Part shown: positions 624-31,422 of the stretch, piece after piece
Layout: every line of letters begins with the position of its first letter
Numbering within the stretch: the stretch's first letter is position 1
NCBI RefSeq assembly: GCF_002428305.1
Contig: NZ_DIVJ01000023.1
Coordinates: 108,489 to 172,488 of the forward strand
Length of the DNA stretch: 64,000 nucleotides
Direction: 5' to 3'
DNA from: Flavobacterium sp. UBA6135
GTDB taxonomy: Bacteria > Bacteroidota > Bacteroidia > Flavobacteriales > Flavobacteriaceae
Notes under the pieces: generated by a model
Seen by the model: the letters and a program-made list of their open reading frames with translations, nothing else
The model's database searches: none
Told to the model about the DNA's origin: nothing
Translations under genes and position numbers: made by a program

Positions 624-3581
624 TTAAAATTTTACGTTAGCCCCAAACAAAAATTGTCTCTGTCTTGGGTAGATAGTATTGTCAAAACCTCCTGTTACTT
701 CGGGGTCTAAACCACCATATTTTGTGATTACAAATGCATTTTGAACACCTGTAAATAGGCGTAAAGAAGCTTTTCCTTCTAACCATTTAGGAAAAGTATA
801 ACCTAAAGTTACATAATCCATTCTTAAAAAAGAGGCATTTTCAACATACATGTCTGATAAAACATTTTCTCCATTTTGTTCTACAAAATTTGTATTTAAA
901 ACATTTGTTGAAATGTTTTCCAATACACCATTCTGAATCAAAGCATAATAAGAACGGGTAGATTCTACAGCATTTAAAACTCTATTTCCTATACTTGCTC
1001 TAAGGTTAAATGCAAAATCAAAGTTTTTATAATTCATAGTAGAATTAAAACCTAATAATAAATCAGGATCAGGATTTTTATAAATGTACCTGTCGTCACC
1101 ATTAATTAAACCATCACCATTTAAATCTGCAAAGGCTCCTTCAATTGCAGCACCACTAGGGTCATACAATTGTTTGTAAACGAAAAAGGAGAAAGGCGTA
1201 TATCCTTCTTGCAAGATTTGAGAAGTTCCTCCCGTTCCTGCACCTGATTGACCGGTAAATAAAGGTGAGCCTAATGCTATTTTCTCAATTCTTCTTTCAA
1301 ATTTTGTAGCATTAAACCCAACATTCCAATTGAAGTTTTCTGAATTAAAAAGATCATAATTGATAGAAAATTCTATACCTTTTGAACTCATGTCCCCAAC
1401 ATTCTGTGGCCCTTGGTTTGAGAAGTTACTTCCATCTGCGAATGGTCCAATCTGAAAAAGATCATTAGAAAGTTTATAAAACACATCTAAAGACCCATTC
1501 AATCTATTGTTCATAAATCCATAATCTAACCCCGCATTATAGGTTGTTGTTTCTTCCCATTTCAATGGTCCAAAAGCACTAGGAACGCCAACATTTATAG
1601 GTTGTCCGCCAATAATATATTGAGAGTTTGCATCACCTAAATTATAAATTGATTGATAAAAAGACGCCTGATCAATTGACTGTTGACCAGTAATACCCCA
1701 ACCTAGACGTAACTTTAAATCAGACAATACAGTAGAATCTTTGAAAAAATCTTCTTTAATTTTCCAACCTAAAGCTGCAGCAGGGAAATTGCCCCATCTG
1801 TTATCAGGACCAAAACGTGATGTACCGTCTCTTCTGTAAGACAATGTTAATAGATACTTGTCTTTTAAATTAAAATTTGCTCTTCCAAAATATCCTAAAA
1901 GAACAACATCTGTATCAACATAATATCTTAGTTGGTCTGTTGGATCGGTTGCTTCAAAACCTGCTTGGCCAGAGTTTTCAAACTTTTGATACGAATAACC
2001 AGCTGTACCTTCAAAACTTAAGTCGCCAAACTCTTTGTTGTAGATAAAATAGAAATCTAATAATTTATTAATTCTTTGGTTAGCTTCATTAAATTTTGTT
2101 CCTAAAGATATGTTATTGTTTTGAAAACCTGATCTAGCGGAAGTAGATCTAGTTCTAGATCTTTCCCCATCATTATTATCATACCCCAAGTTTAAAACCG
2201 CTCTTAATTCTGGTAAAAAATGAAACTTATAATCTACTTCAAAGTTTCCAAAAAATCTATTATTTGTTCCTCTGTCATTAGTTTGCAGTAATTGTGCAAC
2301 CGGATTTGGAGTTGATGGATTTAAGAATGGATTACCCGGTAAATTTGGGTTGTAATATTCAAAGAAACCATCATAAGGTGAATTTACATCGTAAATAGGT
2401 TGTGTTGGGTCAAATCGAATTGCTGCCCCTTCTACTCCATCTGCAAACCTATTTCGTTGATTTGTGTAATTCGCAGAAACTCTAAATTTCAAATGATTTT
2501 CAAATAAAGAAGGAGACAAATTTAAAGAAACTGAATTTCTTGTAAACTCATTTGTCAATCGAAGACCTTCCTGATACGTGTTTCCAATTGATAATCTTGT
2601 TGGAATTGATCCAAATAAATTTCCTTTAAGTGATAAATTATTGTCAACAAAATCTGTTCTTCTGTAAATTGCCTTTTGCCAATTTGTATTAGCATCTCCC
2701 AGCATAGCTACCTGTCCTGGTGTTCCAATACCCGGTGTAAGCTGCACACCATTTCCATCAAATGTTCCGGCTACTAAAGCTCTAAACTCATCACCGGTGA
2801 ACACATCTATTTCTCCAACATTTTTTCCAGAACCATATTGAAAATTATATTCAACCTGAAGTGTTTTAGCTCCTCTTTTGGTAGTGATAATGATAACGCC
2901 ATTAGAAGCTCTAGATCCATAAATAGCTGTAGCAGAAGCATCTTTCAAAATAGTAAATGACTCAATATCATTTGGATTTATCGAAGATAAAATCGATGTT
3001 GCTCCTGCTGCACCTTGATTATCAATTGGCAACCCATCAATCACAATCAAGGGATCATTCGAGGCCAACAAAGAAGAACCTCCACGAATTCTGATTTCAG
3101 AACCAGATCCCGGTGCTCCACTTGTATTAATTGTTAAACCGGCTACTTTACCGTTCAGTAAATTCTCCGCAGTAACATTTGCACCCTTGTTAAAATCTTC
3201 AGAAGTAATTTGAGTTACAGAGCCGGTTGCATCTTTTTTCTTAACCGTTCCATAACCAATAAGCACTACCTCATCAAGTTGTGCCGTATCTTCTTCTAGT
3301 GAGACTTGAAGATTTCTTTGATTACTAAATGTAACATCGATTGTTTTGAATCCTACAAAGGACAATTCAATAACATCTCCGCTTTTTAGATTTGACAGTG
3401 TAAAATTTCCGTCAAAATCAGTAATGGTACCATTTGTAGTACCTTTTACAATTACGCTAACTCCTGGCAATGGCAGATTTGTTGCCTTCTCTGTGACATT
3501 TCCAGTTAAAGTATTCTGTGCCAATAGTGTAAGTGGCATCAGAAGCAACGCAATGAACAACTTTTTGTAAATTGTTTTCAT
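624..3581 (-). CDS. susC: SusC/RagA TonB-dependent outer-membrane transporter
   Basis: Signal peptide, N-terminal carboxypeptidase-regulatory-like domain, plug motif ILKDASATAIYGSRASNGVIIITTK, C-terminal YP...GANVKF. Confidence 0.97.
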   Translation of the reverse strand: MKTIYKKLFIALLLMPLTLLAQNTLTGNVTEKATNLPLPGVSVIVKGTTNGTITDFDGNFTLSNLKSGDVIELSFVGFKTIDVTFSNQRNLQVSLEEDTAQLDEVVLIGYGTVKKKDATGSVTQITSEDFNKGANVTAENLLNGKVAGLTINTSGAPGSGSEIRIRGGSSLLASNDPLIVIDGLPIDNQGAAGATSILSSINPNDIESFTILKDASATAIYGSRASNGVIIITTKRGAKTLQVEYNFQYGSGKNVGEIDVFTGDEFRALVAGTFDGNGVQLTPGIGTPGQVAMLGDANTNWQKAIYRRTDFVDNNLSLKGNLFGSIPTRLSIGNTYQEGLRLTNEFTRNSVSLNLSPSLFENHLKFRVSANYTNQRNRFADGVEGAAIRFDPTQPIYDVNSPYDGFFEYYNPNLPGNPFLNPSTPNPVAQLLQTNDRGTNNRFFGNFEVDYKFHFLPELRAVLNLGYDNNDGERSRTRSTSARSGFQNNNISLGTKFNEANQRINKLLDFYFIYNKEFGDLSFEGTAGYSYQKFENSGQAGFEATDPTDQLRYYVDTDVVLLGYFGRANFNLKDKYLLTLSYRRDGTSRFGPDNRWGNFPAAALGWKIKEDFFKDSTVLSDLKLRLGWGITGQQSIDQASFYQSIYNLGDANSQYIIGGQPINVGVPSAFGPLKWEETTTYNAGLDYGFMNNRLNGSLDVFYKLSNDLFQIGPFADGSNFSNQGPQNVGDMSSKGIEFSINYDLFNSENFNWNVGFNATKFERRIEKIALGSPLFTGQSGAGTGGTSQILQEGYTPFSFFVYKQLYDPSGAAIEGAFADLNGDGLINGDDRYIYKNPDPDLLLGFNSTMNYKNFDFAFNLRASIGNRVLNAVESTRSYYALIQNGVLENISTNVLNTNFVEQNGENVLSDMYVENASFLRMDYVTLGYTFPKWLEGKASLRLFTGVQNAFVITKYGGLDPEVTGGFDNTIYPRQRQFLFGANVKF

Positions 3582-3691
3582 ACAGTTTGTTTAGATTAAA
3601 ATTGTGTTTTTTGTGTGCTTGTATTTTACTTCGAATGTTAAATTTACGTAAAAATCTAAACAATTTTTGTGAACAGCTGTTAAAAGTGTTG

Positions 3692-3705
3692 CGAAAACGT
3701 TTTCG
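3692..3705. promoter_or_regulatory. Candidate LacI-family operator
   Basis: Perfect 14-bp palindrome CGAAAACGTTTTCG with central CG, between divergent susC and the LacI gene. Confidence 0.75.
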
Positions 3706-3808
3706 TGTTGAAAAGTTTTAATAATTCATAGTTTTTTACCCCCAAAATTCCGATTACAGAAAATTAAATTTATCTTTATTCAAAATTTACTATTTACCAC
3801 ACCCTAAA

Positions 3809-4828
3809 ATGAAAAGAAAAGTTACCCTAAAACAGATTGCAAAAGAACTTGATGTATCAATTTCAACCGTTTCAAAATCATTAAAAGACAGTACAGAAAT
3901 CAGTGAAGATACTCGCTTAAAGGTACAAGCTTTTGCTAAACTTTATAACTACAAACCAAACAACATTGCTTTAAGTTTAAAGAATAAAAAAACCAAAACA
4001 ATTGGTGTTATTATTCCGGAGATTGTACATCATTTTTTTGCAACAGTTATCAGTGGCATTGAACATCTTGCTAATGAAAACGGATACAACGTTATTGTCT
4101 GTTTGTCTGACGAATCTTTTGATAAAGAGGTTATCAATATGGAAATGTTGGCAAATGGAAGTATTGACGGATTCATCATGTCTTTGTCAAAAGAAACGCA
4201 ACAAAAAAGAGATTTTCATCACATCACAGAAATTATAAATCAAGGAATGCCGGTTGTAATGTTTGACAGGGTTTCAAACGATATTTTATGCGACAAGGTA
4301 ATTATTGATGATAATCTAGCTGCTTTCAACGCTGTTCAAACCTTGATTGAAAAAGGAATGAAGAAAATAGCATTAATCACAACTGTTGATTACGTTAGCG
4401 TTGGGAAACTGAGAACTGACGGCTACATTAAAGCATTAAAAACTAACGATTTAAAAGTAAATAACGAACTAATATTAAAAATTGAAGACATTGACAACTG
4501 TGAAAATCTAATTGAGGATTTAATTAAAAACAATAAAATTGATGCTGTTTTTGCGGTTAATGAACTATTTGCAGTAACTGCAATTAAAGCAGCTTCAAAA
4601 CACAATATTAAAGTTCCAGAGGAAATCTCGGTCATTGGATTTACCGATGGCATTATCTCCAAATATGCTTCACCAAGCATCACTACTGTTAGTCAAAACG
4701 GAATTAAAATGGGAGAAAAAGCAGCTAAAATGTTAATCGAAAGATTAGAGAGTGATGAATGGGATGACGAACACTTCAAAACTGAAGTTATTGAAACACA
4801 TCTGGTGGAAAGAGAATCCACAAAATAA
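3809..4828 (+). CDS. LacI-family transcriptional regulator of the maltose/starch locus
   Basis: HTH VTLKQIAKELDVSISTVSKSL, hinge YKPN, periplasmic-binding-protein-like effector domain. Confidence 0.95.
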   Translation: MKRKVTLKQIAKELDVSISTVSKSLKDSTEISEDTRLKVQAFAKLYNYKPNNIALSLKNKKTKTIGVIIPEIVHHFFATVISGIEHLANENGYNVIVCLSDESFDKEVINMEMLANGSIDGFIMSLSKETQQKRDFHHITEIINQGMPVVMFDRVSNDILCDKVIIDDNLAAFNAVQTLIEKGMKKIALITTVDYVSVGKLRTDGYIKALKTNDLKVNNELILKIEDIDNCENLIEDLIKNNKIDAVFAVNELFAVTAIKAASKHNIKVPEEISVIGFTDGIISKYASPSITTVSQNGIKMGEKAAKMLIERLESDEWDDEHFKTEVIETHLVERESTK

Positions 4829-4880
4829 ATTTTCTATTAAAATATTTAAGCCTAATAAATTTTTCGAATAGAAAAAAATA

Positions 4881-4888
4881 TATATTTG
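4881..4888 (+). promoter_or_regulatory. Bacteroidetes -7 promoter element for the MFS-pgmB-GH operon
   Basis: TATATTTG matches TAnnTTTG, about 95 nt upstream of the ATG. Confidence 0.65.
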
Positions 4889-4900
4889 TAATCAGTATTA

Positions 4901-4966
4901 ATCAAAACTTGTATTTTACTTCGAACCCACAAGTTTTGATAAGCCTTAAACGCTTATCGTTTTATT
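4901..4966 (+). ncRNA. Structured 5' leader or candidate sRNA with two overlapping hairpins
   Basis: 12-bp perfect stem ATCAAAACTTGT/ACAAGTTTTGAT (4901-4940); 7-bp stem GATAAGC/GCTTATC (4938-4958) followed by GTTTTATT. Confidence 0.5.
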
Positions 4967-4984
4967 AACCAATAAATTACGATA

Positions 4985-6331
4985 ATGGAAAAGCGTAAGT
5001 TAAGTTTCTGGGAAATTTGGAACATGAGTTTCGGTTTCTTGGGGATACAAATGGGTTTTGCCCTCCAAAATGCAAATGCCAGTAGAATTCTTCAAAAGTT
5101 TGGTGCCGATGTTCATGAACTTTCGTGGTTTTGGATTATTGCTCCACTCACAGGATTAATTGTTCAACCCATTATTGGTCACTACAGTGATAATACTTGG
5201 GGTCGCTTTGGAAGAAGAAAACCTTTTTTCTTACTTGGTGCTGTTCTTGCCTCTGTCGGGTTAATTTTAATGCCGCAATCTGAAATTTTCATTGCCTTTT
5301 TACCTGCTCTTTGGGTTGGTGCCGGAATGCTTATGATTATGGATGTTTCATTTAACATTGCTATGGAACCTTTTCGTGCTTTGGTTGGAGACAATCTTCG
5401 AACGGATCAAAGAACATTGGGTTTTAGTGTGCAAACTGCTTTAATTGGAATGGGAGCTGTTGTTGGTTCAATTCTACCTTCTTTTTTAAGATGGGTTGGT
5501 GTTACAGGTGAAACCGAAAGCGGAATTCCCAATGATTTAATTTGGTCTTTTATTATTGGTGCAGCTATTTTAATAATTACCATTTTAGTTACTGTAATTA
5601 CTACGCATGAATATTCGCCACAAGAATTAGAAAATTTTACAGACGAAAAAGCTCATAAAGATGCCATTGGTGATGAAAAACCTTCACGGTTGTTAGACAT
5701 TTTTGAAGATTTTGCTAAAATGCCAACCACTATGCGTCAATTAAGTATGGTTCAATTCTTTTCTTGGTTTGGTCTTTTCGGAATGTGGGTGTTTACAACT
5801 CCTGCCATTGCTCAACACATTTATGGTTTGGCATCAGATGATGTGAAAAATCCATTATTTGATGACGCTGGAAATTGGGTTGGTGTTCTTTTTGGCGTTT
5901 ACAATTTCGTTTCGATGATTTTTGCGTTCACACTTCCTTACATTGCCAAACAAATTGGACGAAAAAAAACACACGCAACTTCTCTAATTATTGGAGGAAT
6001 CGGATTAATTTCTATCTATTTTATGCCAAATAAAGATGCTCTGATTTTTTCTATGATTTGTATAGGAATTGCTTGGGCGAGTATTTTATCAATGCCTTAT
6101 GCCATTCTTGCCGGATCTATTCAACCCAAGAAAATGGGAGTTTACATGGGAATTTTTAATTTCTTTATCGTAATTCCACAAATTATTAATGCCCTCATTG
6201 GAGGATTACTTGTTAAATATTTATATAATGATCATGCCATTTTTGCTTTGGTAACTAGTGGTGTCAGTTTTTTAATTGCTGCAGCCTTAGTTTACAAAGT
6301 AAAAGATGTTGATGATGTAGTACAAAACTAA
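4985..6331 (+). CDS. MFS maltose/maltodextrin transporter (SLC45/GPH-like)
   Basis: About 12 hydrophobic segments, QPIIGHYSDNTWGRFGRRKPF motif, position in the maltose locus. Confidence 0.9.
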   Translation: MEKRKLSFWEIWNMSFGFLGIQMGFALQNANASRILQKFGADVHELSWFWIIAPLTGLIVQPIIGHYSDNTWGRFGRRKPFFLLGAVLASVGLILMPQSEIFIAFLPALWVGAGMLMIMDVSFNIAMEPFRALVGDNLRTDQRTLGFSVQTALIGMGAVVGSILPSFLRWVGVTGETESGIPNDLIWSFIIGAAILIITILVTVITTHEYSPQELENFTDEKAHKDAIGDEKPSRLLDIFEDFAKMPTTMRQLSMVQFFSWFGLFGMWVFTTPAIAQHIYGLASDDVKNPLFDDAGNWVGVLFGVYNFVSMIFAFTLPYIAKQIGRKKTHATSLIIGGIGLISIYFMPNKDALIFSMICIGIAWASILSMPYAILAGSIQPKKMGVYMGIFNFFIVIPQIINALIGGLLVKYLYNDHAIFALVTSGVSFLIAAALVYKVKDVDDVVQN

Positions 6332-6987
6332 TGAATCAAAGATGTTTCATATTCGACCTCGATGGCGTAATCGTTGACACGGCTAAATATCACTTTTTAG
6401 CTTGGCAAAAAATTGCGAACCAGTTAGGTATTGAATTTACGCCCGAACACAACGAAGAACTCAAAGGTGTAAGCCGTGTTCGATCACTGGACCTTATTTT
6501 AGCCTTAGGAAATCTAGAAGCTTCGCAAGAAGACAAAAACAAATGGCTCGTTCAAAAAAACGAAGACTATCTTTCCTATTTGGTGGATATGGACGAAAGT
6601 GAAATCTTACCGGGAGTTTTACCGGTTCTCATTTATCTTAAAGAAAATAACCAAAAAATCGTATTGGGTTCTGCCAGTAAAAACGCAAAACCAATTTTAG
6701 AAAAAGCAAAAATTATCGATTATTTTGACGCCATTGTGGATGGAAACGATGTGTCTAATGCAAAACCAGACCCGGAAGTTTTTATTCAAGGAGCCAAAAA
6801 AGTAAATTTTTCAAACGAAAAATGTATCGTTTTTGAAGATTCTGTAGCTGGAGTTCAAGCTGCAAATAGTGCCGGGATGACGAGTGTTGGAATCGGCGAA
6901 GAAAGTATTTTACATGAAGCTCAATTCGTATTTCCTGATTTCACACACATCGATTTGAATTTTATACAAAACCTAATAAATAAATAG
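6331..6987 (+). CDS. pgmB: Beta-phosphoglucomutase
   Basis: HAD motifs FDLDGVIVDT, SASKN, KPDPEVF, FEDS; adjacent to GH65. Confidence 0.93.
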   Translation: MNQRCFIFDLDGVIVDTAKYHFLAWQKIANQLGIEFTPEHNEELKGVSRVRSLDLILALGNLEASQEDKNKWLVQKNEDYLSYLVDMDESEILPGVLPVLIYLKENNQKIVLGSASKNAKPILEKAKIIDYFDAIVDGNDVSNAKPDPEVFIQGAKKVNFSNEKCIVFEDSVAGVQAANSAGMTSVGIGEESILHEAQFVFPDFTHIDLNFIQNLINK

Positions 6988-7015
6988 TAAAATTTTAATG
7001 ATTTCGAATTTTAAA

Positions 7016-7047
7016 AACTTGAAACGTTAAACTTGAAACTTTTAAAC
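7016..7047 (+). repeat. Degenerate heptamer array (TTGAAAC-type) before the GH65 start
   Basis: ttgaaac gttaaac ttgaaac ttttaaac. Confidence 0.7.
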
Positions 7048-7055
7048 TAAAATTA

Positions 7056-9359
7056 ATGAACCAAGATTATATCATACCAGATAACTGGTCGATTATTGAA
7101 GAAGGATTTGAACAAGACCTGGTTAAGTCTTCCGAAAGTTTGTTCAGCATTGGAAACGGTGCGATGGGACAACGTGCAAATTTTGAAGAATATTATTCCG
7201 GAAAAACCTTCCAAGGAAGTTATATTGCCGGAATTTATTATCCAGATAAAACAAAAGTGGGTTGGTGGAAAAACGGTTATCCCGAATATTTTGCCAAAGT
7301 GCTTAATGCTCCAAATTGGATTGGTATTAACATCGAAATTAACGGTGAAAATTTGGATTTAGCCAATTGTGCAGCAGTGAAAATTTTCCGTAGAGAGTTG
7401 AATATGAAAGAGGGTTGGTATCATCGTTCTTTTACAGCAACCCTTCAAAACGGAACTGAAATTGAAGTACAAGTGCGTCGTTTTCTTTCATTGGATTTAG
7501 ATGAAGTGGGTGTAATTAATTATCAAATTACCGCTTTAAATCAGGATGCGAAAATTGTTTTCAAACCGTATATTGATGCTGGTGTTCACAACGAAGATGC
7601 CAACTGGGAAGAAAAATTTTGGGAACCATTACATGTAAAAAATAATGGAAACGAAGCTTTTGTAACAGCAAGAACTTTCAAAACGCATTTTACCGCAACT
7701 ACATTCATGCACAATACGATTTTGGTGGGTGGAAAAAATGTAAATGTTTCTCCATCGAATGTTGTCGCACCACATGATAAAATTGAATTTTCGTATGAAG
7801 TTTCAGTTGCCCAAAATCAATCGGCTACCATTCAAAAAATAGGTGGTTACACCGTTTCAATGAACCATGAAAATACGGAAGAAGCGGCTAAAAAAGTTGT
7901 ATCTGAAGCAATTTCCATCGGTTACAACCAATTATTAGAAGACCAAATCAAGGCTTGGGCAAAAATTTGGGAAATGAGTGATATAACCATAGATGGTGAT
8001 GTGAAAGCTCAACAAGGAATTCGTTTCAATATTTTTCAATTAAACCAAACGTATTTAGGAAAAGATTCTCGTTTAAATATTGGTCCGAAAGGATTTACCG
8101 GAGAAAAATACGGCGGATCAACCTATTGGGATACAGAAGCGTATTGTATTCCTTTCTATATGGCCACCAAAGATCAACAAGTTGCTAGAAATCTATTGAC
8201 GTATCGTTACAATCAATTGGACAAAGCAATTGAAAATGCCGAAAAGTTAGGTTTTAAAAACGGTGCGGCTTTGTATCCGATGGTGACGATGAACGGTGAA
8301 GAATGTCACAATGAATGGGAAATTACGTTTGAAGAAATTCACCGTAACGGAGCCATTGCTTTTGCTATATTTAATTATTACCGATTCACAGGAGATTACA
8401 GCTATATTCCTGAAAAAGGTTTGGAAGTTTTAATCGGAATTGCTCGTTTTTGGCACCAAAGAGCCACCTACTCTACCTATCGAAATCAGTATGTAATTTT
8501 AGGTGTAACAGGTCCAAATGAATATGAAAATAACGTAAACAATAATTTTTACACCAATTATATTGCCAAGTGGTGTATTGATTATACGGTAGAACAAATT
8601 CAAAAAATTGAAAAAGAATATTCTTCAGATTATACTAGAATTTTAAATAAAGTAAAACTTTCTGTAGCTGAAATTAACCATTGGAAAGAAGTTGCCGATA
8701 ATATGTATTTTCCTTTTTCGGAAGAACACGACGTTTATTTGCAGCAAGATGGTTTCTTAGATAAAGAATTAGTAAAAGTTTCTGATTTAGATAAAAGTCA
8801 GCGACCGATTAATCAAAAATGGTCATGGGATCGAATTTTACGTTCGCCTTACATCAAACAAGCTGATACGTTACAAGGGTTTTATTTCTTTGAAGATCAT
8901 TTCAGTAAAGAACAATTAGAGAAACATTTCGATTTTTATGAACCATTTACCGTTCACGAAAGTTCACTTTCGCCTTGCGTTCACTCGATTCAAGCGGCTG
9001 TTTTGGATAGAATGGAACAAGCTTATACTTTCTATCTTCGAACTTCCCGTTTGGATTTAGATGATTATAACAAAGAAGTACACGAAGGTTTACACATCAC
9101 GTCGATGGCCGGAACTTGGATGAGTATTGTAGAAGGTTTTGGTGGAATGCGAGTGAAAAATGAAACCTTACATTTTGAACCAAAAATTCCAACACAATGG
9201 AAAGGCTATTCGTTTAAAATTAATTTCAGAAATCAAATTTTAAAAGTTTCTGTTCAATCTAATGAAACGAAGTTTTCTCTGGAAGGAAATAAACCAATTA
9301 CTGTTTTTGTAAAAGGAAAAGAAATCTTGGTGGAACCGAATAGTTTGGTTACCGTTTAA
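7056..9359 (+). CDS. GH65 maltose phosphorylase
   Basis: KGFTGEKYGGSTYWDTE, GPNEYE, KQAD and HESSLS motifs; coupled to pgmB. Confidence 0.92.
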   Translation: MNQDYIIPDNWSIIEEGFEQDLVKSSESLFSIGNGAMGQRANFEEYYSGKTFQGSYIAGIYYPDKTKVGWWKNGYPEYFAKVLNAPNWIGINIEINGENLDLANCAAVKIFRRELNMKEGWYHRSFTATLQNGTEIEVQVRRFLSLDLDEVGVINYQITALNQDAKIVFKPYIDAGVHNEDANWEEKFWEPLHVKNNGNEAFVTARTFKTHFTATTFMHNTILVGGKNVNVSPSNVVAPHDKIEFSYEVSVAQNQSATIQKIGGYTVSMNHENTEEAAKKVVSEAISIGYNQLLEDQIKAWAKIWEMSDITIDGDVKAQQGIRFNIFQLNQTYLGKDSRLNIGPKGFTGEKYGGSTYWDTEAYCIPFYMATKDQQVARNLLTYRYNQLDKAIENAEKLGFKNGAALYPMVTMNGEECHNEWEITFEEIHRNGAIAFAIFNYYRFTGDYSYIPEKGLEVLIGIARFWHQRATYSTYRNQYVILGVTGPNEYENNVNNNFYTNYIAKWCIDYTVEQIQKIEKEYSSDYTRILNKVKLSVAEINHWKEVADNMYFPFSEEHDVYLQQDGFLDKELVKVSDLDKSQRPINQKWSWDRILRSPYIKQADTLQGFYFFEDHFSKEQLEKHFDFYEPFTVHESSLSPCVHSIQAAVLDRMEQAYTFYLRTSRLDLDDYNKEVHEGLHITSMAGTWMSIVEGFGGMRVKNETLHFEPKIPTQWKGYSFKINFRNQILKVSVQSNETKFSLEGNKPITVFVKGKEILVEPNSLVTV

Positions 9360-9365
9360 TAAATT

Positions 9366-9420
9366 CTCGCAAAGACGCTAAGTCGCAAAGATTTACTTAG
9401 CGTCTCTGCGACTTTGCGAG
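9366..9420. repeat. Nested inverted-repeat intergenic element
   Basis: ctcgcaaag...ctttgcgag, acgctaagt/acttagcgt and agtcgca/tgcgact. Confidence 0.8.
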
Positions 9421-9435
9421 ATAAAACAATCAATT

Positions 9436-11298
9436 ATGAAAAAAATTTCATTACTACTGTTTTGTCTCGCATTTTCATTTTTATCCGCTCAAGTCAATCG
9501 AATTGAACCCACAAACTGGTGGACAGGATTCAAAAATGAAAATCTGCAATTGCTCGTGCATCATCCAAACATCGGAAATGCCACTCCAAAAATTTCCTAC
9601 GATGGTGTTTCAATTATCAAAGTTCACAAAGCTAAAAGTCTGAACTACTTATTTATCGATTTAAAAATTGATAAATCCACTAAACCCGGAAAATTCAATA
9701 TCATTTTTGAATCGGAAAAAGGAAAAAAAATCACACAATCGTACGAATTAAAACCGAAATCTAAACCTTCAGTAGATTTTATCGGTTTCAATAGTTCTGA
9801 TGCCATTTACCTCATCACGCCAGACCGTTTTGCCAACGGAAATGAAGCGAATGATGTTGTGAAAACTATGCAAGAAACTACATTAGACAGAACCCACGAT
9901 TACAAACGTCACGGTGGTGATATTCAAGGAATTACAAATCATATTGATTATATTAAAAATTTAGGATTTACTGCTATTTGGCCAACTCCGGTTTTGACGA
10001 ATGATATGAAAAGTGGTTCGTACCACGGCTATGCAATGACCGATTTTTATCAAGTAGATCCTCGATTCGGAACCTTAGCGGATTACAAAAATCTATCCAA
10101 AAAATTGCATCAAAATGGTATGAAACTCATTATGGATCAAGTTGCGAATCATTGCGGTAGCGAACATTGGTGGATGAAAGATTTACCATTTGGCGATTGG
10201 GTTAATTATCAGGAATTATTTGAAAAAGAAAAAAAATACGTCACTTCCAATCACCGAAGAACAAGCAATCAAGATTTGTATGCTTCCGAAAAAGACAAAA
10301 AAGAAATGGCCGATGGTTGGTTTGTTCCAACCATGCCCGATTTGAATCAACGCAATCCTTTTTTAGCAAAATACATCATTCAAAACAGCATTTGGTGGAT
10401 TGAAACCTTGCATTTAGGAGGAATTCGTCAAGACACTTATCCTTACCCTGACAAAGTTTTTATGTCAAATTGGGCTGGCGAAATCATGAATGAATATCCC
10501 AATTTTAATATTGTTGGCGAAGAATGGAGTTCGAATCCGTTGCTGATTGGTTATTGGCAAAAAGGTGCAAATAATAAAGACGGTTATGAATCGAACTTGC
10601 GTTCGACGATGGATTTTGCCATGCAAACCCTCATTCCGCAAGCCATCAAAGAAACAGAAAGTTGGGACAAAGGTTTGGCGAAAATTTACGATGGTTTAGC
10701 CAACGATTTTCATTATGCTTCGCCAAAAGACATTATGATTTTTCCGGATAATCACGATATGGATCGCATTTTTACACAAATGGAGGAAAATGTTGAAAAT
10801 ACTAAAATGGCTTTGGCAACCTATTTGGTTTTACCAAGAATTCCACAGTTGTATTATGGAACAGAAATCCTAATGCAAAACACTGCCAAACCAGGTGATC
10901 ACGGCTTAATTAGAACTGATTTTCCCGGTGGATGGAAAGGTGATAAAGTAAATGCTTTTATAGGCGAAGGACTTTCTGCTGAACAAAAAGATATGCAAAG
11001 CTATTTGACTAAAATTTTAAATTACCGAAAAGACAGCAAAGCCATACACGACGGTAAAACCATTCATTTTGCTCCGAATAATGGCGTTTATACCTTATTT
11101 AGAATGTTGAATGATGAAATTGTTATTTTAATTTTAAATAAAAACGAATCCACAAAAGTTGATCTTTCCACCTATAAAGAATTAGGTTTTGAAGGTAAAA
11201 AAATGAAGAACATTGTAACCGGAGAAGAAATTATTTGGGATAAAGAATTGACTTTAAACAAAAAAGGAGCCTATCTTTTTACGACAAAAATGAATTAA
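9436..11298 (+). CDS. GH13 cyclomaltodextrinase/neopullulanase (SusA-like)
   Basis: Signal peptide; catalytic motifs GIRQDTY, VGEEW, DNHD. Confidence 0.9.
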   Translation: MKKISLLLFCLAFSFLSAQVNRIEPTNWWTGFKNENLQLLVHHPNIGNATPKISYDGVSIIKVHKAKSLNYLFIDLKIDKSTKPGKFNIIFESEKGKKITQSYELKPKSKPSVDFIGFNSSDAIYLITPDRFANGNEANDVVKTMQETTLDRTHDYKRHGGDIQGITNHIDYIKNLGFTAIWPTPVLTNDMKSGSYHGYAMTDFYQVDPRFGTLADYKNLSKKLHQNGMKLIMDQVANHCGSEHWWMKDLPFGDWVNYQELFEKEKKYVTSNHRRTSNQDLYASEKDKKEMADGWFVPTMPDLNQRNPFLAKYIIQNSIWWIETLHLGGIRQDTYPYPDKVFMSNWAGEIMNEYPNFNIVGEEWSSNPLLIGYWQKGANNKDGYESNLRSTMDFAMQTLIPQAIKETESWDKGLAKIYDGLANDFHYASPKDIMIFPDNHDMDRIFTQMEENVENTKMALATYLVLPRIPQLYYGTEILMQNTAKPGDHGLIRTDFPGGWKGDKVNAFIGEGLSAEQKDMQSYLTKILNYRKDSKAIHDGKTIHFAPNNGVYTLFRMLNDEIVILILNKNESTKVDLSTYKELGFEGKKMKNIVTGEEIIWDKELTLNKKGAYLFTTKMN

Positions 11299-11301
11299 AG
11301 A

Positions 11302-13701
11302 ATGAAAAAACTCTTTTTACTATTATTTCTTTCAACTATTGGATTTGCTCAAAATGCAAATCGGAAATACATTTCGCATCAATTAAATGAAAACGTTTTG
11401 GAAGTAAAAACTTCCGATGGCACGTATTTCATTCAATCTTATACTGATAAAATCATTGAAACTTCTTTCGTTCCAAACGGAGAAAAATTCAATCCAAATT
11501 CGCACGCTGTTGTTTTAAAACCAAATAGTAATGGTTTTGAATTTAAACAATCAACGGACTATTTAGAAATTAAAACCAATGATTTAGAAGTTCAAATTGT
11601 AAAATCACCTTTTAAAATTTCGTATTACAAAAAAGGTGAATTACTACTTTCTGAAAAATTAGGTTACTTCAAACGCAAACACGAACCCCTTGAAAAAGTG
11701 AAAGGAAATATCGTTTATGATTCCACTGAAGTAATTCAATTCAATATCAATTCAACCGAAAAACTATATGGTGGTGGAGCAAGAGTTTTAGGGATGAACC
11801 GTCGCGGCAACCGTCTAGCACTTTACAACAGAGCCGATTATGGTTATGAAACTCGTTCAGAATTGATGAATTTTACCATTCCAATAGTCATTTCTTCGCA
11901 AAAATATATGGTTCATTTTGACAATGCTCCCATAGGTTATTTGGATTTGGATAGTAAAAAAGAAAATGTTTTAGAATACGAAACCATTTCCGGCAGAAAA
12001 ACCTATCAAGTGATTGCGGGCGATTCGTGGGAAGATTTAATTTATAATTACACCGAATTAACCGGAAGACAACCGTTACCTCCTCGTTGGGCTTTGGGTA
12101 ATTTCTCCTCACGTTTTGGCTATCATTCTGAAGCGGAAGCCAGAAGAACTATCAAGAAATTTCAAGATGAAAATATTCCGGTAGATGCAATTATTTTAGA
12201 TTTGTATTGGTTTGGAAAAGAATTGCAAGGTACAATGGGGAATTTAGAAATATATCGCGACAGTTTCCCTACGTTTGAAAAAATGGTGGCAGACTTCAAT
12301 AAAATGGGTATCAAAACCATTCCGATTACAGAACCTTTTATTTTAACAACTTCCAAAAAATGGCAAGAAGCTGTGGATAAAAAAATCTTAGCTACCGACA
12401 CGAAAGGAAATCCTTTTACGTATGATTTTTATTTTGGAAACACCGGTATCATTGACATTTTTAAACCATCCGGTAAAAAATGGTTTTGGAACATTTACCA
12501 AGAACTAGCCAACAAAGGTGTGAGTGGTGTTTGGGGAGATTTAGGTGAACCCGAAGTTTTTCCGGCCGCTGCACAAACCTTTGGAGGAACTGCAGATGAA
12601 GTGCATAATATTTACGGACACAATTGGGCAAAATTGGTTTTTGAAGGTTATCGCAACGATTTTCCAACGCAAAGACCTTTTATTTTGATGCGTTCCGGCT
12701 ATTCGGGTTCGCAACGATATGGCATGATTCCGTGGAGTGGCGATGTGAATCGAACTTGGGGAGGATTATCAGGTCAAGTGGAGATTTCATTACAAATGGG
12801 AATGCAAGGTTTGGCCTATATGCATTCTGATTTAGGCGGATTTGCAGGAGCGAATTTAGATGACGAATTATATGTTCGTTGGCTTCAATATGGTGTTTTC
12901 AATCCGATATTTCGTCCGCACGCACAATCGGATGTGGCTTCGGAGCCGATTTTTAGAAGTGATTGGGCGAAAAATTTAGCGAAACAAGCGATTGAATTAC
13001 GTTATTCAATGCTTCCATACAATTATAGTTTGGCTTTTGAAAATTCGCAAACCGGTATTCCATTGATGCGTCCGCTGTTTTTTGAAGAACCGGAAAATGA
13101 AACACTATTGACTAAATCAGACGGTTATTTGTGGGGAAAAGATTATCTGGTTTATCCGATTATGGAAGCAAATCAGCAATCAAAAGAAGTATATTTTCCT
13201 AAAAATAGTAATTGGACGGAAACTAATTCCACAAAAAAATATAGTGGCGGTTCAACAGAAAAAATAAATGTTGTTACGTCTCACATTCCAACATTTGTAC
13301 GAAACGGTGTTTTGATTCCATGGACAAAAACAGTTCAAACCACTCAAAATTATGACAATTCCAACTTAAATTTTCAACTTTATTTTGATGAAAAAGTAAC
13401 ATCAAGCGAACGTCAATTCTATTTTGATGAAGGAAATAATTCATCTGAAAATAATCCAGAATTGCTTACTTGCGAAACAGAAATTTCCAAAGAAGTACTT
13501 TTGATTTCGATGGAAAGTAATTCATCAAAATCAAGTTCTAAATCTGGTTCCTATTTAATTTATCATATTAACAGCAAACCAAAATCTGTAAAAATAAATG
13601 ATAAAAAAATAAAATTTATTTACAATAAAGAGTATGATATCTTATTGTTTAATTATACCCATAACAGTAACAAAACAACTATAAAAATTAAATTAAAATG
13701 A
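11302..13701 (+). CDS. GH31 alpha-glucosidase
   Basis: WGDLGEPE nucleophile motif, WSGDV, HSDLGGF; signal peptide. Confidence 0.9.
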   Translation: MKKLFLLLFLSTIGFAQNANRKYISHQLNENVLEVKTSDGTYFIQSYTDKIIETSFVPNGEKFNPNSHAVVLKPNSNGFEFKQSTDYLEIKTNDLEVQIVKSPFKISYYKKGELLLSEKLGYFKRKHEPLEKVKGNIVYDSTEVIQFNINSTEKLYGGGARVLGMNRRGNRLALYNRADYGYETRSELMNFTIPIVISSQKYMVHFDNAPIGYLDLDSKKENVLEYETISGRKTYQVIAGDSWEDLIYNYTELTGRQPLPPRWALGNFSSRFGYHSEAEARRTIKKFQDENIPVDAIILDLYWFGKELQGTMGNLEIYRDSFPTFEKMVADFNKMGIKTIPITEPFILTTSKKWQEAVDKKILATDTKGNPFTYDFYFGNTGIIDIFKPSGKKWFWNIYQELANKGVSGVWGDLGEPEVFPAAAQTFGGTADEVHNIYGHNWAKLVFEGYRNDFPTQRPFILMRSGYSGSQRYGMIPWSGDVNRTWGGLSGQVEISLQMGMQGLAYMHSDLGGFAGANLDDELYVRWLQYGVFNPIFRPHAQSDVASEPIFRSDWAKNLAKQAIELRYSMLPYNYSLAFENSQTGIPLMRPLFFEEPENETLLTKSDGYLWGKDYLVYPIMEANQQSKEVYFPKNSNWTETNSTKKYSGGSTEKINVVTSHIPTFVRNGVLIPWTKTVQTTQNYDNSNLNFQLYFDEKVTSSERQFYFDEGNNSSENNPELLTCETEISKEVLLISMESNSSKSSSKSGSYLIYHINSKPKSVKINDKKIKFIYNKEYDILLFNYTHNSNKTTIKIKLK

Positions 13702-15347
13702 AACAATTCTTTTCCACATTAATCTTATGTTGTATGATTGTAGGATGTTCACCAAAAAAAGAAACCGTTCAAGTAGAAACACCTTTTGTTTGGGAAGGTG
13801 CCAATTTGTACTTCCTACTTATAGACCGATTTAACAACGGAAATCCTGAAAATGACTCAATCATTCGAAGAGATAAAGAAACCGGCGTTCTCCGTAATTT
13901 TATGGGTGGCGATATCAAAGGAGTTACGCAAAAAATTGAAGAAGGTTATTTTACCGATTTGGGAATTAATGCCATTTGGATGACACCTGTCGTAGAACAA
14001 ATTCACGGATCAGTGGATGAAGGAACCGGAAATTCGTATGGTTTCCACGGTTATTGGACCAAAGATTGGACAGCGATCGACCCAAGTTTTGGATCAAAAG
14101 ATGACTTGAAAGAATTAGTTGAAAAAGCTCACGCCAAAGGAATCAGAATTGTATTGGATGCAGTAATTAATCATACTGGACCAGTTACTGAATTAGATCC
14201 CGTTTGGCCGGAAAGTTGGGTGCGAACCGGTCCAAAATGTTCGTATGATACCTATAAAAATTACATTGATTGTACGTTGGTAGAAAACCTTCCGGACATT
14301 AAAACTGAAAGCAATGAAGATGTCGAATTGCCACCGGCTTTGATAGAAAAATGGAAAAAAGAAGGCCGTTACGATCAAGAAGTAGCCGAGTTAGATGAAT
14401 TTTTCAAAAGAACAGGTTATCCAAGAGCACCGAAATACTACATTATGAAATGGTTGTCCGATTACATCACCGATTATGGAATTGATGGTTATCGGGTAGA
14501 TACCGTGAAACATACCACCGAAGATGTTTGGGCTGATTTTGAAAAAGTGTGTAAAGACGCTTTTGCACAATACAAAAAAAACAATCCTGATAAGGTTTTA
14601 GATGATAATGATTTTTACCTACTTGGTGAAGTCTATGGTTATGGATTAAACGGCAAACGCAACTATGATTTTGGCGACAAAAAAGTAGATTATTTTGCTC
14701 ACGGATTTGACAACCTCATCAATTTTGATTTTAAAGGTGATGCCAATAAAAGGTATGAAGAAATTTTTTCAAACTATTCAAACGCCTTACAATCTGATTT
14801 AAAAGGAGTAAGCATCACTAATTATGTAAGTTCTCACGACGACGGTTGGCCGTTTGATAAAAAAAGAGAAAAAGCCTTTGATGCAGGAACTAAATTATTA
14901 TTAACACCCGGAATTTCGCAAGTGTATTATGGTGATGAAACCGCTCGTTCATTAGAAATTGAAGGAACCGAAGGCGATGCAACCTTACGTTCGTTTATGA
15001 ACTGGGAAGACATCAAAACCAATGCAAACACTAAAAACGTATTGACGCATTTTCAAAAAATAGGTCAGTTTAGAAAAAACCATCCTGCGGTTGGAGCGGG
15101 AGTTCATGAAGAAATTTCGAAAGCACCTTTTTATACATTTAGCAGAACTTTTACCAAAGGTGAATTTACCGATAAAGTGGTGATTGGTTTGGAATTACCG
15201 TTTGGTAAAAAAGAAATCAATGTCTCAACCATTTTTGAAGATGGCACAGAAGTTCACGATGCTTTTTCCGGTATTTCAACTAATGTAAAAGATGGAAAAG
15301 TGATAATTGATAGTCAGATGGGAATTGTTTTGTTGGAGAAGAAATAA
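13698..15347 (+). CDS. GH13 alpha-amylase lipoprotein
   Basis: Lipobox IVGC; GYRVDTVKH, LGEVY, SSHDD motifs. Confidence 0.9.
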   Translation: MKQFFSTLILCCMIVGCSPKKETVQVETPFVWEGANLYFLLIDRFNNGNPENDSIIRRDKETGVLRNFMGGDIKGVTQKIEEGYFTDLGINAIWMTPVVEQIHGSVDEGTGNSYGFHGYWTKDWTAIDPSFGSKDDLKELVEKAHAKGIRIVLDAVINHTGPVTELDPVWPESWVRTGPKCSYDTYKNYIDCTLVENLPDIKTESNEDVELPPALIEKWKKEGRYDQEVAELDEFFKRTGYPRAPKYYIMKWLSDYITDYGIDGYRVDTVKHTTEDVWADFEKVCKDAFAQYKKNNPDKVLDDNDFYLLGEVYGYGLNGKRNYDFGDKKVDYFAHGFDNLINFDFKGDANKRYEEIFSNYSNALQSDLKGVSITNYVSSHDDGWPFDKKREKAFDAGTKLLLTPGISQVYYGDETARSLEIEGTEGDATLRSFMNWEDIKTNANTKNVLTHFQKIGQFRKNHPAVGAGVHEEISKAPFYTFSRTFTKGEFTDKVVIGLELPFGKKEINVSTIFEDGTEVHDAFSGISTNVKDGKVIIDSQMGIVLLEKK

Positions 15348-23255: not shown

Positions 23256-25526
23256 ATGAAAAAAATTTACCTCCTATTATTATTATCTTTTTCTGTTTTA
23301 CAAGCTCAAACCACTTTAGACAACATCAATATATGTAGTAATAATTCACCTGTTAGTGTAAATTTGACTACAAAAAATGCTGAAATTTTAGGAGCAAATT
23401 CACCAAATGATTATACTATATCTTTTCATTTGAGTAATGTAGATGCTTTAGCTAATTTGAGTCCGATTAACAATCCTACATCTTTTATAGTTTCCTTTGG
23501 TTCAACAACTATTTTTGCCAGAAGTTCAAATAATACAAATAGCACTTTTTATATTGAAAGTTTTACCGTTTTTGCTGGTGCAAATCCTATCATTAACAAT
23601 GCTACTTTAATATGGTGTGACCCGACCGCACTCCCTATATTTAATTTGGAAGACGCTAGTCAACAAATCACAAATGGGATCTCAAATTTAATTGTAACGT
23701 TTCATGAAACCGAGTCAGATGCAATAATGGGTGTAAATCAAATCACTTCATCTTTTTATTCACCTGTTGTACCGCTGACTCAAATTTTAAGTGTTCGGGT
23801 TACTGACCCAAATACGGATTGTTTTAGTATCACAACTTTAACATTGACCACTAACAATTGCGATACATCCTGTACAGCTCCTGACCAATTAACTGCTGCT
23901 AATATAAGTGATACCAGTGTTCAATTGAATTGGAGTTTAACAACTAACTCTTCATTTATTTATCATGAAATATTGATTCAATCATTAGAAAACAACATGA
24001 CCTCTACTTTTGTTGTTCAAGGAAATACATCTTTTATCTTAACCGGCTTGATTCCAAATTCTTGCTATACAACTTCAGTAAAAACAGTATGTGATGTTGG
24101 CTTTTCAAGCACTTGGTCTGAACCTTTTTCTTTTTGTTTAATGGATTGTACGAATAATGCTCAATGTGCTGAACAAATTATCTTAAATGCATTTTTGGAC
24201 ACCAATGCTAACGGAGTTAAGGATTCTGGAGAACCAAATTTCATTCATGGTTCTTTCACGTATCAAGTTAATTCAGGAGATGTCATTTCTGCAAATGGTT
24301 CAAGTGGTACTCATAGTATTTTAGTTCCGGATGTAACAAACAGCTATACTTTAAATTTTCAAATCAATCCTGAATACTCGTCCTATTTTTCTACTTCAAC
24401 AAGTTATACAAACATCAGTGTAGCAGCTGGAAGTGGATCCACCACGTATTATTTCCCAGTTACTTCTCAACAAAATTTTTCAGACGTACAAGTGAATGTT
24501 ATTGGGAACAATCAACCAAGACCAGGATTTACCTATAGCAACACCATTATTTACAAAAACAACAGTTATCAAAGTGTCCCTTCAGGTACAATCACTTTTA
24601 CAAAAGACCCCGCTGTAACCATTACCAATATCTCTCAAAGCGGAGCTACACCTACGGCTAGTGGATTTACCTTTGATTATACCAATTTAGCTCCATTTGA
24701 AACCAGACAGATTTTAGTAACAATGCAAGTTCCGGTGATTCCAACTGTAAATTTAGGTGATATTTTAACCAACAGTGTTACGATTACGCCAAGTCCCGAC
24801 ACCATTCCTTCAAATAATGAGTCAAGTGTTTCGCAAGTGGTGGTGGGCTCTTATGACCCGAATGATAAAATGGAATCAAGAGGCCCTGAAATTGACATTG
24901 ATACTTTTACAACTAATGATTATTTATATTATACCATTCGATTTGAAAATACAGGTACCGCTTCAGCAGAATTTATAAGAATTGAGGATACGCTTCATGC
25001 TGATTTGAATCCGGCAACTTTTGAAATGATTCATGCCAGTCATACGTACAATGTTACTCGTAATGGCAATGAATTGGTTTGGCACTTTTTTGATATTGAT
25101 TTGCCTCCCACCATTGAAGATCCAATTTTAAGCCAAGGCTATGTTCATTTCAGAATAAAACCAAATTCCGGTTTTGCTGTTGGAGATATTATTCCAAATA
25201 CTGCGGAGATTTATTTTGATTACAATCCTGCGATTATTACTAATACTTTTGAAACAGAGTTTGTGGAGACATTAAGTATATCTGACTATGTGGTTTCCGA
25301 TTTATTAATTTATCCAAATCCCGCATCTGATATTTTGTATTTCAATTCAAACAATACAATAAAAGATATTACAGTTTACGATCTGTTGGGAAATGAAATT
25401 TTGCTTAAAAAAGTAAATAAAAATCAAATGGATTTAGATGTTGCAAACTTAAGTAAGGGAATATATATTATTAAAATTATAAATCCTGACAATACAGAAC
25501 ATATCCGAAAATTTATTAAAAAGTAG
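23256..25526 (+). CDS. T9SS type-A cargo protein (fn3-like region, conserved 'SYDPNDK' C-terminal module, CTD)
   Basis: Signal peptide; SYDPNDKM, YTIRFENTG, NTAEIYFDYN; CTD IYPNPA...YIIKI. Confidence 0.88.
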   Translation: MKKIYLLLLLSFSVLQAQTTLDNINICSNNSPVSVNLTTKNAEILGANSPNDYTISFHLSNVDALANLSPINNPTSFIVSFGSTTIFARSSNNTNSTFYIESFTVFAGANPIINNATLIWCDPTALPIFNLEDASQQITNGISNLIVTFHETESDAIMGVNQITSSFYSPVVPLTQILSVRVTDPNTDCFSITTLTLTTNNCDTSCTAPDQLTAANISDTSVQLNWSLTTNSSFIYHEILIQSLENNMTSTFVVQGNTSFILTGLIPNSCYTTSVKTVCDVGFSSTWSEPFSFCLMDCTNNAQCAEQIILNAFLDTNANGVKDSGEPNFIHGSFTYQVNSGDVISANGSSGTHSILVPDVTNSYTLNFQINPEYSSYFSTSTSYTNISVAAGSGSTTYYFPVTSQQNFSDVQVNVIGNNQPRPGFTYSNTIIYKNNSYQSVPSGTITFTKDPAVTITNISQSGATPTASGFTFDYTNLAPFETRQILVTMQVPVIPTVNLGDILTNSVTITPSPDTIPSNNESSVSQVVVGSYDPNDKMESRGPEIDIDTFTTNDYLYYTIRFENTGTASAEFIRIEDTLHADLNPATFEMIHASHTYNVTRNGNELVWHFFDIDLPPTIEDPILSQGYVHFRIKPNSGFAVGDIIPNTAEIYFDYNPAIITNTFETEFVETLSISDYVVSDLLIYPNPASDILYFNSNNTIKDITVYDLLGNEILLKKVNKNQMDLDVANLSKGIYIIKIINPDNTEHIRKFIKK

Positions 25527-31360: not shown

Positions 31361-31422
31361 GTGAATCCAAGCATCATTATACTTTTATAAGAACTTTATA
31401 ATTTATTAACCATTCATAATAT

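Follow-up and report, generated by a model that had tools for sequence, protein, structure and literature searches.

Polysaccharide utilization loci (PULs) are the defining nutritional machinery of the Bacteroidota, and how an outer-membrane SusC/D operon and a separate inner-membrane and cytoplasmic operon stay in step is poorly understood, especially in the Flavobacteria. In Bacteroides thetaiotaomicron, the trans-encoded small RNAs (sRNAs) FopS and GibS base-pair with susC-like mRNAs around the start codon and so repress them (PMC11697453; PMC7366714), and DonS-type sRNAs of Bacteroides fragilis (Cao et al. 2016, as cited in PMC9723704) are cis-antisense RNAs at susC homologues. A direct mRNA-mRNA interaction couples the two functionally linked genes hly and prsA2 of Listeria monocytogenes (PMC8722363), and the dCas12f-sigmaE system of Flavobacteria carries out RNA-guided transcription with targets upstream of susCD operons (PMC13472631). 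A literature search returned no base-pairing PUL regulator for Flavobacteria, and no description of the paired-leader arrangement reported here or of its leader RNA. The subject of this report is an 18-nt sequence, CTTGTATTTTACTTCGAA, that occurs twice in a stretch of 64,000 nucleotides of Flavobacterium sp. UBA6135 (contig NZ_DIVJ01000023.1, positions 108,489 to 172,488; hereafter the window). One copy lies just upstream of a susC-like gene and the other in the leader of an operon headed by a major facilitator superfamily (MFS) sugar transporter gene, and the transcripts predicted from the two sites would be complementary. We consider the best explanation to be that the susC mRNA, through its 5' end, pairs in trans with the MFS leader RNA, a reading to which we give slightly better than even chances. 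The copies and the genes beside them are as follows.

3618-3635, minus strand: copy 1 (c1), which the susC strand reads as TTCGAAGTAAAATACAAG; predicted to be about +1/+2 to +18 of the susC mRNA
4908-4925, plus strand: copy 2 (c2), within the leader RNA of the MFS operon; takes in 13 of the 16 loop nt of a hairpin, P1, and the adjoining 5 nt of its 5' arm
624-3581, minus strand: susC-like TonB-dependent transporter gene (open reading frame; Pfam Plug, CarboxypepD_reg and TonB beta-barrel)
3809-4828, plus strand: LacI-family regulator gene, between the two copies (Pfam LacI helix-turn-helix and periplasmic-binding-protein-like domains)
4985-6331, plus strand: MFS sugar transporter gene, ATG at 4985 (Pfam, open reading frame), heading a cytoplasmic maltose/maltodextrin catabolic operon

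Like the FopS and GibS systems, this locus belongs to the Bacteroidota, and it would have a base-pairing RNA act post-transcriptionally on the first, susC-like mRNA of a PUL through a seed in an exposed 5' region of the regulator. FopS, however, is encoded by free-standing multicopy sRNA genes, pairs beside the susC start codon, blocks translation and is countered by RbpB, whereas the complementary RNA here is the single-copy mRNA leader of the partner operon, and it would pair with susC at the very 5' end of the transcript, ~35 nt ahead of the AUG (the match spans 3618-3635, 37-54 nt before the ATG at 3581, as the earlier note on this DNA had placed it). A switch-like fold in the MFS leader itself is a further difference from FopS, and the two are set apart by the features tested rather than by a sequence comparison. 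The earlier note had also invoked DonS, and this analogy holds loosely: in both cases an RNA complementary to the transcript of a PUL susC homologue is encoded in the same locus, but the present one is neither cis-antisense nor directed at the start codon. DonS, being transcribed opposite its target strand, is perfectly complementary by construction, whereas here complementarity depends on a separate copy 1.3 kb away (2.1-5.3 kb in three relatives, described below), the upkeep of which needs selection; moreover, c1 lacks a conserved antisense promoter, and what would be targeted is the outermost 5' stretch of the mRNA rather than the start-codon region. By the features tested, the pair stands outside both the DonS and FopS families. 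By analogy, it would work most like hly-prsA2 placed in a PUL, with the addition of an attenuator-like leader and an extreme 5'-end target: in both, two mRNAs of coupled genes would pair directly and a dedicated sRNA gene is not involved. The two differ in phylum and genes and perhaps in the parts of the mRNAs used, and the Listeria case is experimental while the present one is a matter of co-variation only.

The exact match between 3618-3635 and 4908-4925 on the + strand, reported in the earlier note, was confirmed, and when up to 3 mismatches to CTTGTATTTTACTTCGAA were allowed on both strands of the 64 kb these were still the only two sites. The number of matches expected by chance was 0.28, and none of 100 dinucleotide-preserving shuffles reached two or more. 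A census of exact maximal repeats of at least 18 nt found six direct and two inverted repeats in the window. The others comprise a paralogous pair (24.9/27.0 kb), a heptamer array with its inverted copy (29.5/56.3 kb) and a local repeat of 16-nt spacing at 63.7 kb, and the CTTGTATTTTACTTCGAA pair is the sole exact repeat of this length outside paralogous or tandem DNA. Neither copy is palindromic beyond TTCGAA.

The pair is widely conserved. Eighty Flavobacterium loci were retrieved by the LacI protein (77-88% protein identity). In a homologous-protein search with LacI the relatives listed all had at least 84% identity, and a leader-pattern scan of metagenome contigs was used for wider reach; among the matches listed, the closest named relative is F. 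orientale, with a LacI 98% identical. In most loci retrieved by LacI, the two intergenic regions on either side of lacI each hold the 8-nt core ACTTCGAA on the + strand, one instance ~181 nt before the ATG of that gene and the other ~110-160 nt beyond its stop codon. The block common to both places is ~20 nt long and has the form GCTTATAC-TTTT-ACTTCGAA; it was found at both in ~150 related Flavobacterium loci, so that the earlier note's expectation of co-conservation held in relatives. At the c1 place it was seen in ~140 related loci, with a constant spacing of 3 nt to the susC -7 box. Within a genome, the copies show a mean of 1.8 differences.

Metagenome contigs were also scanned by the downstream leader helices alone (TTGATAAGC...GCTTATCG...ACGATAA), which avoids choosing loci by the motif. 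When the 60 nt upstream of this pattern were aligned locally, without bias, with the DNA lying a further 0.9-2.2 kb upstream, c1 was recovered beside the susC promoter in nearly every locus with sufficient sequence. In one metagenome locus, L086 (1-14020), an insertion of four genes after lacI, ahead of the MFS leader, puts the copies at a distance of 5.3 kb, yet they are still identical at 15 of 15 positions; this locus keeps a lineage-specific CTTCTC core, and its c1 still lies ~36-51 nt upstream of susC. The inserted genes encode proteins of 307, 340, 346 and 203 aa. In two more loci (L120 and L140) the copies are 2.1-2.2 kb apart and match over 16-18 nt. Judged from these sequences, the relation between the copies appears to act in trans and to outlast rearrangement.

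The two copies of one genome also match each other better than they match the copies of other genomes. With c1 taken in the susC sense, the c1:c2 duplex energy averaged -23.4 kcal/mol within a genome versus -17.9 kcal/mol between genomes (75 loci); none of 10,000 permutations gave a value as low (p < 1e-4), and the median rank of a genome's own partner was 3rd of 75. Local-alignment scores, calculated for 149 loci including those from the c2-independent pattern, were 15.7 within genomes versus 11.9 between them, with none of 20,000 permutations as high. When loci were ordered by lacI similarity, at least 16 lineages were found with derived states, substitutions or indels, common to both copies. 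The co-occurring variants include ACTTCTAA, ACTTCAAA, ACTTTCAA, ACTTCTC, TCCACTTC, TTCACTTC and CACACT(A)CACTTCAAA, and further CGTATAC, CTTGTAT, TAACTT, TT(A/G)ACT, a T-run shortened in both copies and TTG in both. Cores were scored against the genus consensus, each independently of its partner: both matched in 97 loci, both carried the identical deviation in 20 and different deviations in 8, and the deviation was one-sided in 11 (c1 only in 6, c2 only in 5). In the intermolecular helix, 86.6% of cells are Watson-Crick or G·U pairs, versus 82.3 +/- 0.5% (maximum 83.9%) when the partners are shuffled. Where the core has its G, the G:C pair gives way to U:A in 11 sequences, to A:U in 7 and to C:G in 2, and only 2 sequences are unpaired. 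Complementarity between the copies is maintained by compensatory changes, with the reservation that their differences show no G·U bias (see below). Co-variation of the copies, a check that the earlier note had asked for, is borne out by the duplex energies, the alignment scores and the matched lineage variants. It is not predicted by independent evolution of the two sites under one consensus, which leaves two readings: pairing between the copies, or a shared partner that co-evolves with the two of them. That the pair forms a co-evolving unit is well supported by these comparisons. Indels of 1 nt between the copies of one genome are frequent, which would fit a bulged RNA helix and would be a poor fit to a rigid bipartite protein site.

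Promoters of the Bacteroidota carry TAnnTTTG boxes, and these were used to place the transcription starts, a sigma-70 promoter scan having been uninformative (8 matches versus 8.2 expected). In F. psychrophilum, the sigma-A -7 box TAnnTTTG spans -12 to -5 (PMC9723704). Two such boxes bear on the copies.

3639-3646, minus strand: predicted susC sigma-A -7 box TAAATTTA (consensus TAnnTTTG), palindromic in the window; start predicted near 3634
4881-4888, plus strand: predicted MFS operon -7 box TATATTTG, a perfect TAnnTTTG conserved in the alignment; start near 4893-4894

A minus-strand TAnnTTTn box is located exactly 3 nt from the c1 core in 130 of 141 loci, and 4 nt from it in 7 more. The box variants TAATTTTG, TAATTTTA and TATGTTTG of other lineages are non-palindromic and orient the promoter toward susC. 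Since the box spans -12 to -5 and the spacing is 3 nt, the susC start is predicted at ~3634, and c1 is predicted to be transcribed as the first ~18-20 nt of the susC mRNA; the promoter rule thus places 3618-3635 within the susC transcript, as the earlier note had supposed. The per-position identity of c1 and c2 is 0.88-1.00 in the core and then falls to 0.08 at the next base toward the box, while at the opposite end it declines from 0.75 to ~0.2 past the leading G. A similarity that ends at the predicted susC start is what one would see if untranscribed bases were of no account. On the other side, the distance from the MFS -7 box to the common block is 10-16 nt in most loci and 19 nt in the window. 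From their promoter boxes, both sites are predicted to be transcribed, and the partners are functionally linked genes, susC and the operon of MFS, GH65, GH13 and GH31 genes.

The MFS leader appears to be a conserved structured RNA. An alignment of 77 leaders contains four conserved segments separated by spacers of variable length, and three helices can be drawn between them.

Segment 1, MFS leader, plus strand: ATCAAAGCTTATAC...ACTTCGAA, holding c2
Segment 2, MFS leader, plus strand: AAGTTTTGATAAGC
Segment 3, MFS leader, plus strand: GCGCTTATCGT
Segment 4, MFS leader, plus strand: ACGATAATGG, holding the ATG
4901-4940, plus strand: hairpin P1 (segments 1:2), arms 4901-4912 and 4929-4940, 12 bp with a 16-nt loop; in the minimum-free-energy fold
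4938-4958, plus strand: hairpin P2 (segments 2:3), GATAAGC at 4938-4944 with GCTTATC at 4952-4958, followed in the window by GTTTTATT
4950-4996, plus strand: helix P3 (segments 3:4), TTATCGT at 4954-4960 with ACGATAA at 4979-4985, and an outer ACGC at 4950-4953 with GCGT at 4993-4996

The earlier note had correctly placed the second copy in the 12-bp hairpin, P1, across most of the loop and part of the 5' arm. Across 73 distinct leaders 86.7% of P1 cells are paired, and the helix contains a dominant G·U pair, along with further wobbles, that could form only in RNA of the + strand. P2 is 100% paired in these 73 leaders with a loop of variable length; one compensatory C-G to U-A change was seen in 3 sequences, and all 3 single changes are wobbles. 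The core of P3 is 99.4% paired and near-invariant. P3 belongs to the minimum-free-energy fold of every leader examined; it takes in the A of the MFS ATG and would sequester the translation start. P1 and P2 overlap at 4938-4940 and P2 and P3 at 4954-4958, which makes these helices mutually exclusive. Free leaders are predicted to fold as P1 plus P3 with the start codon sequestered, and when segment 1 is blocked the P2 and P3 states differ by 0.6 +/- 1.6 kcal/mol (173 distinct leaders). The leader thus has the form of an attenuator or riboswitch, with mutually exclusive conserved helices of which one hides the start codon. In this comparison of sequences it behaves as a + strand RNA structure, the helix arms being conserved and the loop lengths variable. 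The near-invariant ACUUCGAA lies within the P1 loop, and part of c2 is exposed there in the predicted fold, in agreement with the loop-exposed seed described in the earlier note.

Rfam searches returned no plausible family at E <= 10 for the leader or c1 (3400-5200), and none at gathering thresholds over the whole window. A covariance model built from the leader alignment has a single match in the window and, over 50 larger loci (508 kb in all), a single match per locus; every match precedes an MFS gene. As to an sRNA gene, a -7 box precedes the leader, and a U-rich tail follows P2 here; relatives do not keep this tail, and the element invariably adjoins the MFS start codon. The idea that P2 might release a leader-derived sRNA as a conserved intrinsic terminator was not adopted: P2 is terminator-like in the window, but the U-tract is not conserved.

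Under the favoured reading, the first ~18-20 nt of the susC mRNA (5'-UUCGAAGUAAAAUACAAG...) would be complementary to about +15 to +32 of the MFS-operon leader and would cover the loop and part of the 5' arm of the 5'-proximal P1. Pairing would start at the loop-exposed ACUUCGAA and then spread into the P1 arm, and the duplex would strip segment 1 from segment 2, shifting the balance of P2 and P3; the freed segment 2 could then form P2, in competition with the start-codon-covering P3. The likely outcome would be translation of the cytoplasmic-side operon when the outer-membrane operon is transcribed, although stabilization of the susC mRNA and RNase-mediated co-degradation would be equally open outcomes. 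Cofolding is consistent with the initial step: no structure is predicted for the susC 5' untranslated region, and the 18-bp heteroduplex is favoured over P1, with a net gain of -12.7 kcal/mol. The architecture of the leader suggests that the MFS leader may be the regulated partner at least as much as susC. A stronger version would make the susC 5' end a trans-acting riboregulator that flips the leader from P1 to P2 and so releases P3, the MFS protein and the enzymes being translated only during transcription of the susC operon, as a genus-wide mRNA-to-mRNA relay alongside the LacI repressor. This relay model depends on near iso-energetic P2 and P3 states and on an assumed kinetic folding, and we put it forward tentatively, as possible but doubtful.

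The anti-antisense activation of rpoS by DsrA and RprA and the classical four-segment attenuators are the textbook comparators for such a leader. As in these, a cis helix hides the start, helices are exclusive and an external factor on an upstream segment would redirect the folding. Unlike the rpoS type and the attenuators, the trigger here would bind segment 1 rather than the arm covering the start, so that a relay through P2 is needed. Further differences lie in the leader itself, in which a leader peptide is absent, the U-tract after P2 is not conserved and equilibrium folding predicts no opening in the window.

Several observations weigh against pairing between the two mRNAs. Transitions between the copies are without G·U bias, 45 being wobble-compatible and 50 incompatible among 112 distinct pairs, and a second tally over 75 loci gave 27 compatible and 19 incompatible; G·U asymmetry has therefore failed to separate RNA pairing from DNA identity, and the absence of a bias weakens the RNA reading because selection for RNA pairing alone would favour compatible changes. 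Most genomes have 1-3 mismatches or bulges, and a perfect match is found in 3 of 75 loci and 5 of 112 distinct pairs. The ACTTC core is near-invariant throughout the genus, a pattern closer to sequence-specific recognition than to pairing alone. The invariance of P3 and of most of P2 leaves little covariation support for these helices; for the near-invariant P3 there is no covariation evidence. In the window, moreover, the leader keeps P3 after duplex formation at equilibrium, the unpaired probability of the start moving from 0.47 to 0.50, so that any activation would have to be kinetic, during transcription. Both start sites, finally, are placed by a promoter-motif rule. With these points on the scale, an RNA-RNA interaction is moderately supported, and we infer that the duplex would form in vivo. 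Trans complementarity coupling outer-membrane uptake to inner-membrane catabolism, the interpretation the earlier note had preferred, is supported in that it passes the in silico tests run.

The main rival is a shared non-palindromic protein site, an alternative that the earlier note had named and that the present data weaken while leaving it the foremost competitor; we regard it as unlikely. Here c1 and c2 would be DNA operators of one sequence-specific protein encoded elsewhere, which would sit at or just past both starts and repress both operons. The near-invariance of ACTTC in both copies would be expected of such a site, the block resembles three hexamers (TTATAC TTTTAC TTCGAA), its positions (about +1 to +20 of susC and +8 to +32 of the MFS operon) are repressor-like, the inter-copy differences are without G·U bias, and a trans relation would hold at whatever distance. 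It would, on the other hand, require repeated co-evolution of a protein and two sites in the at least 16 lineages with matched changes at genus-variable positions; spacer differences of 1 nt between the copies of one genome are common, the similarity stops exactly at the predicted susC start, and there are just two copies in 64 kb. The locus itself encodes one regulator, LacI, which has an invariant helix-turn-helix and a palindrome of its own. LacI was itself rejected as the binder of c1 and c2: they are non-palindromic, a separate conserved palindrome is present, and the helix-turn-helix (VTLKQIA.ELDVSISTVSKSL) is invariant in 81 loci, including clades with changed c1 and c2. Because it is invariant while c1 and c2 vary, LacI is not the partner that co-varies with them; a LacI operator would be a palindrome of ~14-20 bp with a central CG that co-evolves with the helix-turn-helix, and c1 and c2 show neither property.

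A guide function for the c2 RNA, which would pair with the c1 DNA and so bring a protein to the susC promoter, was considered because dCas12f-sigmaE too matches short RNA sequences to susC sites in Flavobacteria. The resemblance is that both occur in Flavobacteria and relatives and that a short RNA-encoded sequence matches a site beside susC; guide-target matches of ~14 nt upstream of susCD operons are known in Flavobacterium and relatives (PMC13472631), and co-variation over ~20 nt of an RNA-coding site with promoter-proximal DNA is what a guide and its target predict. That system needs dCas12f, a dedicated sigma factor, a long guide RNA scaffold and an upstream DNA target, none of which was seen here: no Cas12f-like or extracytoplasmic-function sigma gene (rpoE-dcas12f) is present among the open reading frames scanned up to ~30.7 kb, c2 stands without a long 5' scaffold at the 5' end of an ~90-nt mRNA leader, and c1 comes after the -7 box, as part of the predicted transcript, whereas a recruited sigma factor needs an upstream site. 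The leader covariance model, with one copy per locus always before the MFS gene, also speaks against a guide, and we hold this explanation to be very improbable. About equally small is the chance that c1 works on the + strand, as a DonS-like cis-antisense RNA or a long lacI 5' untranslated region, with c1 and c2 as identical RNA sites for a third partner, either an sRNA or an RNA-binding protein. Both copies are indeed co-oriented with lacI and the MFS gene, and in some species a perfect TAnnTTTG box on that strand shortly precedes c1. Such a + strand box, however, is found in 29 of 141 loci at variable spacing, which makes a conserved cis-antisense promoter at c1 unlikely; a conserved lacI -7 box at 3771-3778 lies ~140 nt downstream of c1, the adjoining box points to susC wherever it is non-palindromic, and a P1-like partner sequence is absent downstream of c1. 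Least credible of all is a functionless pair, whether a chance match or the product of neutral homogenization by gene conversion between short direct repeats. AT-rich intergenic DNA does yield many short matches, and the window holds 13 direct repeats of at least 16 nt, but the shuffles gave no second match and the pair is kept at the same two functional positions in ~150 loci of many species. The copies are usually non-identical, which counts against gene conversion, and 20 nt is too short for efficient homologous recombination.

If pairing between the susC and MFS transcripts is the correct reading, it would add to the few examples of direct mRNA-mRNA coupling in bacteria, and would be the first in the Bacteroidota that a literature search could find. 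It would define a conserved structured leader matching no Rfam family, and would offer a small natural element with which two operons could be coupled in expression. Co-variation across more than 100 genomes already provides a natural list of compensatory mutants.

The remaining genes of the MFS operon, all identified by Pfam, are these.

6331-6987: HAD/beta-phosphoglucomutase-like gene
7056-9359: GH65 gene
9436-11298: GH13 gene
11302-13701: GH31 gene
13698-15347: second GH13 gene

LacI is the sole regulator encoded in the starch locus proper, from susC to the last GH13 gene (624-15347). Upstream of its gene is a further conserved block.

3693-3720: block with at least 95% column conservation in 80 aligned loci, containing the perfect LacI-type palindrome CGAAAACGTTTTCG (3693-3706)

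The palindrome, of a form that we take to be typical of LacI operators, is likely the operator of the local LacI/MalR-like regulator, judging from its sequence. The conserved block (…CGTGTTGAAAAGTTTT) falls between the divergent susC and lacI promoters, and the centre of the palindrome is ~65 nt upstream of the predicted susC start and ~85 nt upstream of the predicted lacI start, a placement unusual for a simple repressor. In many relatives, a second LacI-type palindrome (e.g., TCTACGnCAACGTTGTAGTT) lies over the lacI stop codon, upstream of the MFS promoter and ~1000-1030 nt after the lacI start; carriers include loci L007, L044, L060, L072, L078 and L080. It is absent from the window (~4815-4830) and from the closest relatives, the LacI of which is 339 aa rather than 341 aa in length.

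Other features of the window were noted in passing. Tandem heptamers (AACTTGA)n are located at 29520-29553 with an inverted copy at 56285-56329 (94% complementary over 33 nt), and a shorter heptamer-related stretch occupies 7015-7041, in the spacer between the HAD/beta-phosphoglucomutase-like and GH65 genes. The tandem paralogous genes at 23256-25526 and 25677-27629 encode secreted proteins with a DUF7619 domain and a type IX secretion C-terminal sorting domain, and share a 300-nt stretch of 74% identity at a spacing of 2091 nt. A 14-nt tandem repeat (AATACTGAAATCTG-like, 3 copies) and an 88% complementary inverted partner (31331-31362 and 31837-31892) flank a small open reading frame at 31423-31791. 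Between the convergent open reading frames 33888-34250 (+) and 34283-35383 (-), a 28-nt inverted repeat with a 1-nt spacer and 89% complementarity (34239-34295) is probably a bidirectional terminator. Rfam identified two tRNA genes, at 37142-37223 (+) and 46715-46788 (-), and an S16-Flavobacteria ribosomal-protein leader at 55128-55159 (+), the score of which (39.1 bits) is just over the gathering score of 35.7. Two tandem 36-nt units at 53966-54037, 83% identical and rich in CCACC/CCGCC, lie in a small minus-strand open reading frame (53953-54327) that would encode a glycine-rich repeat.

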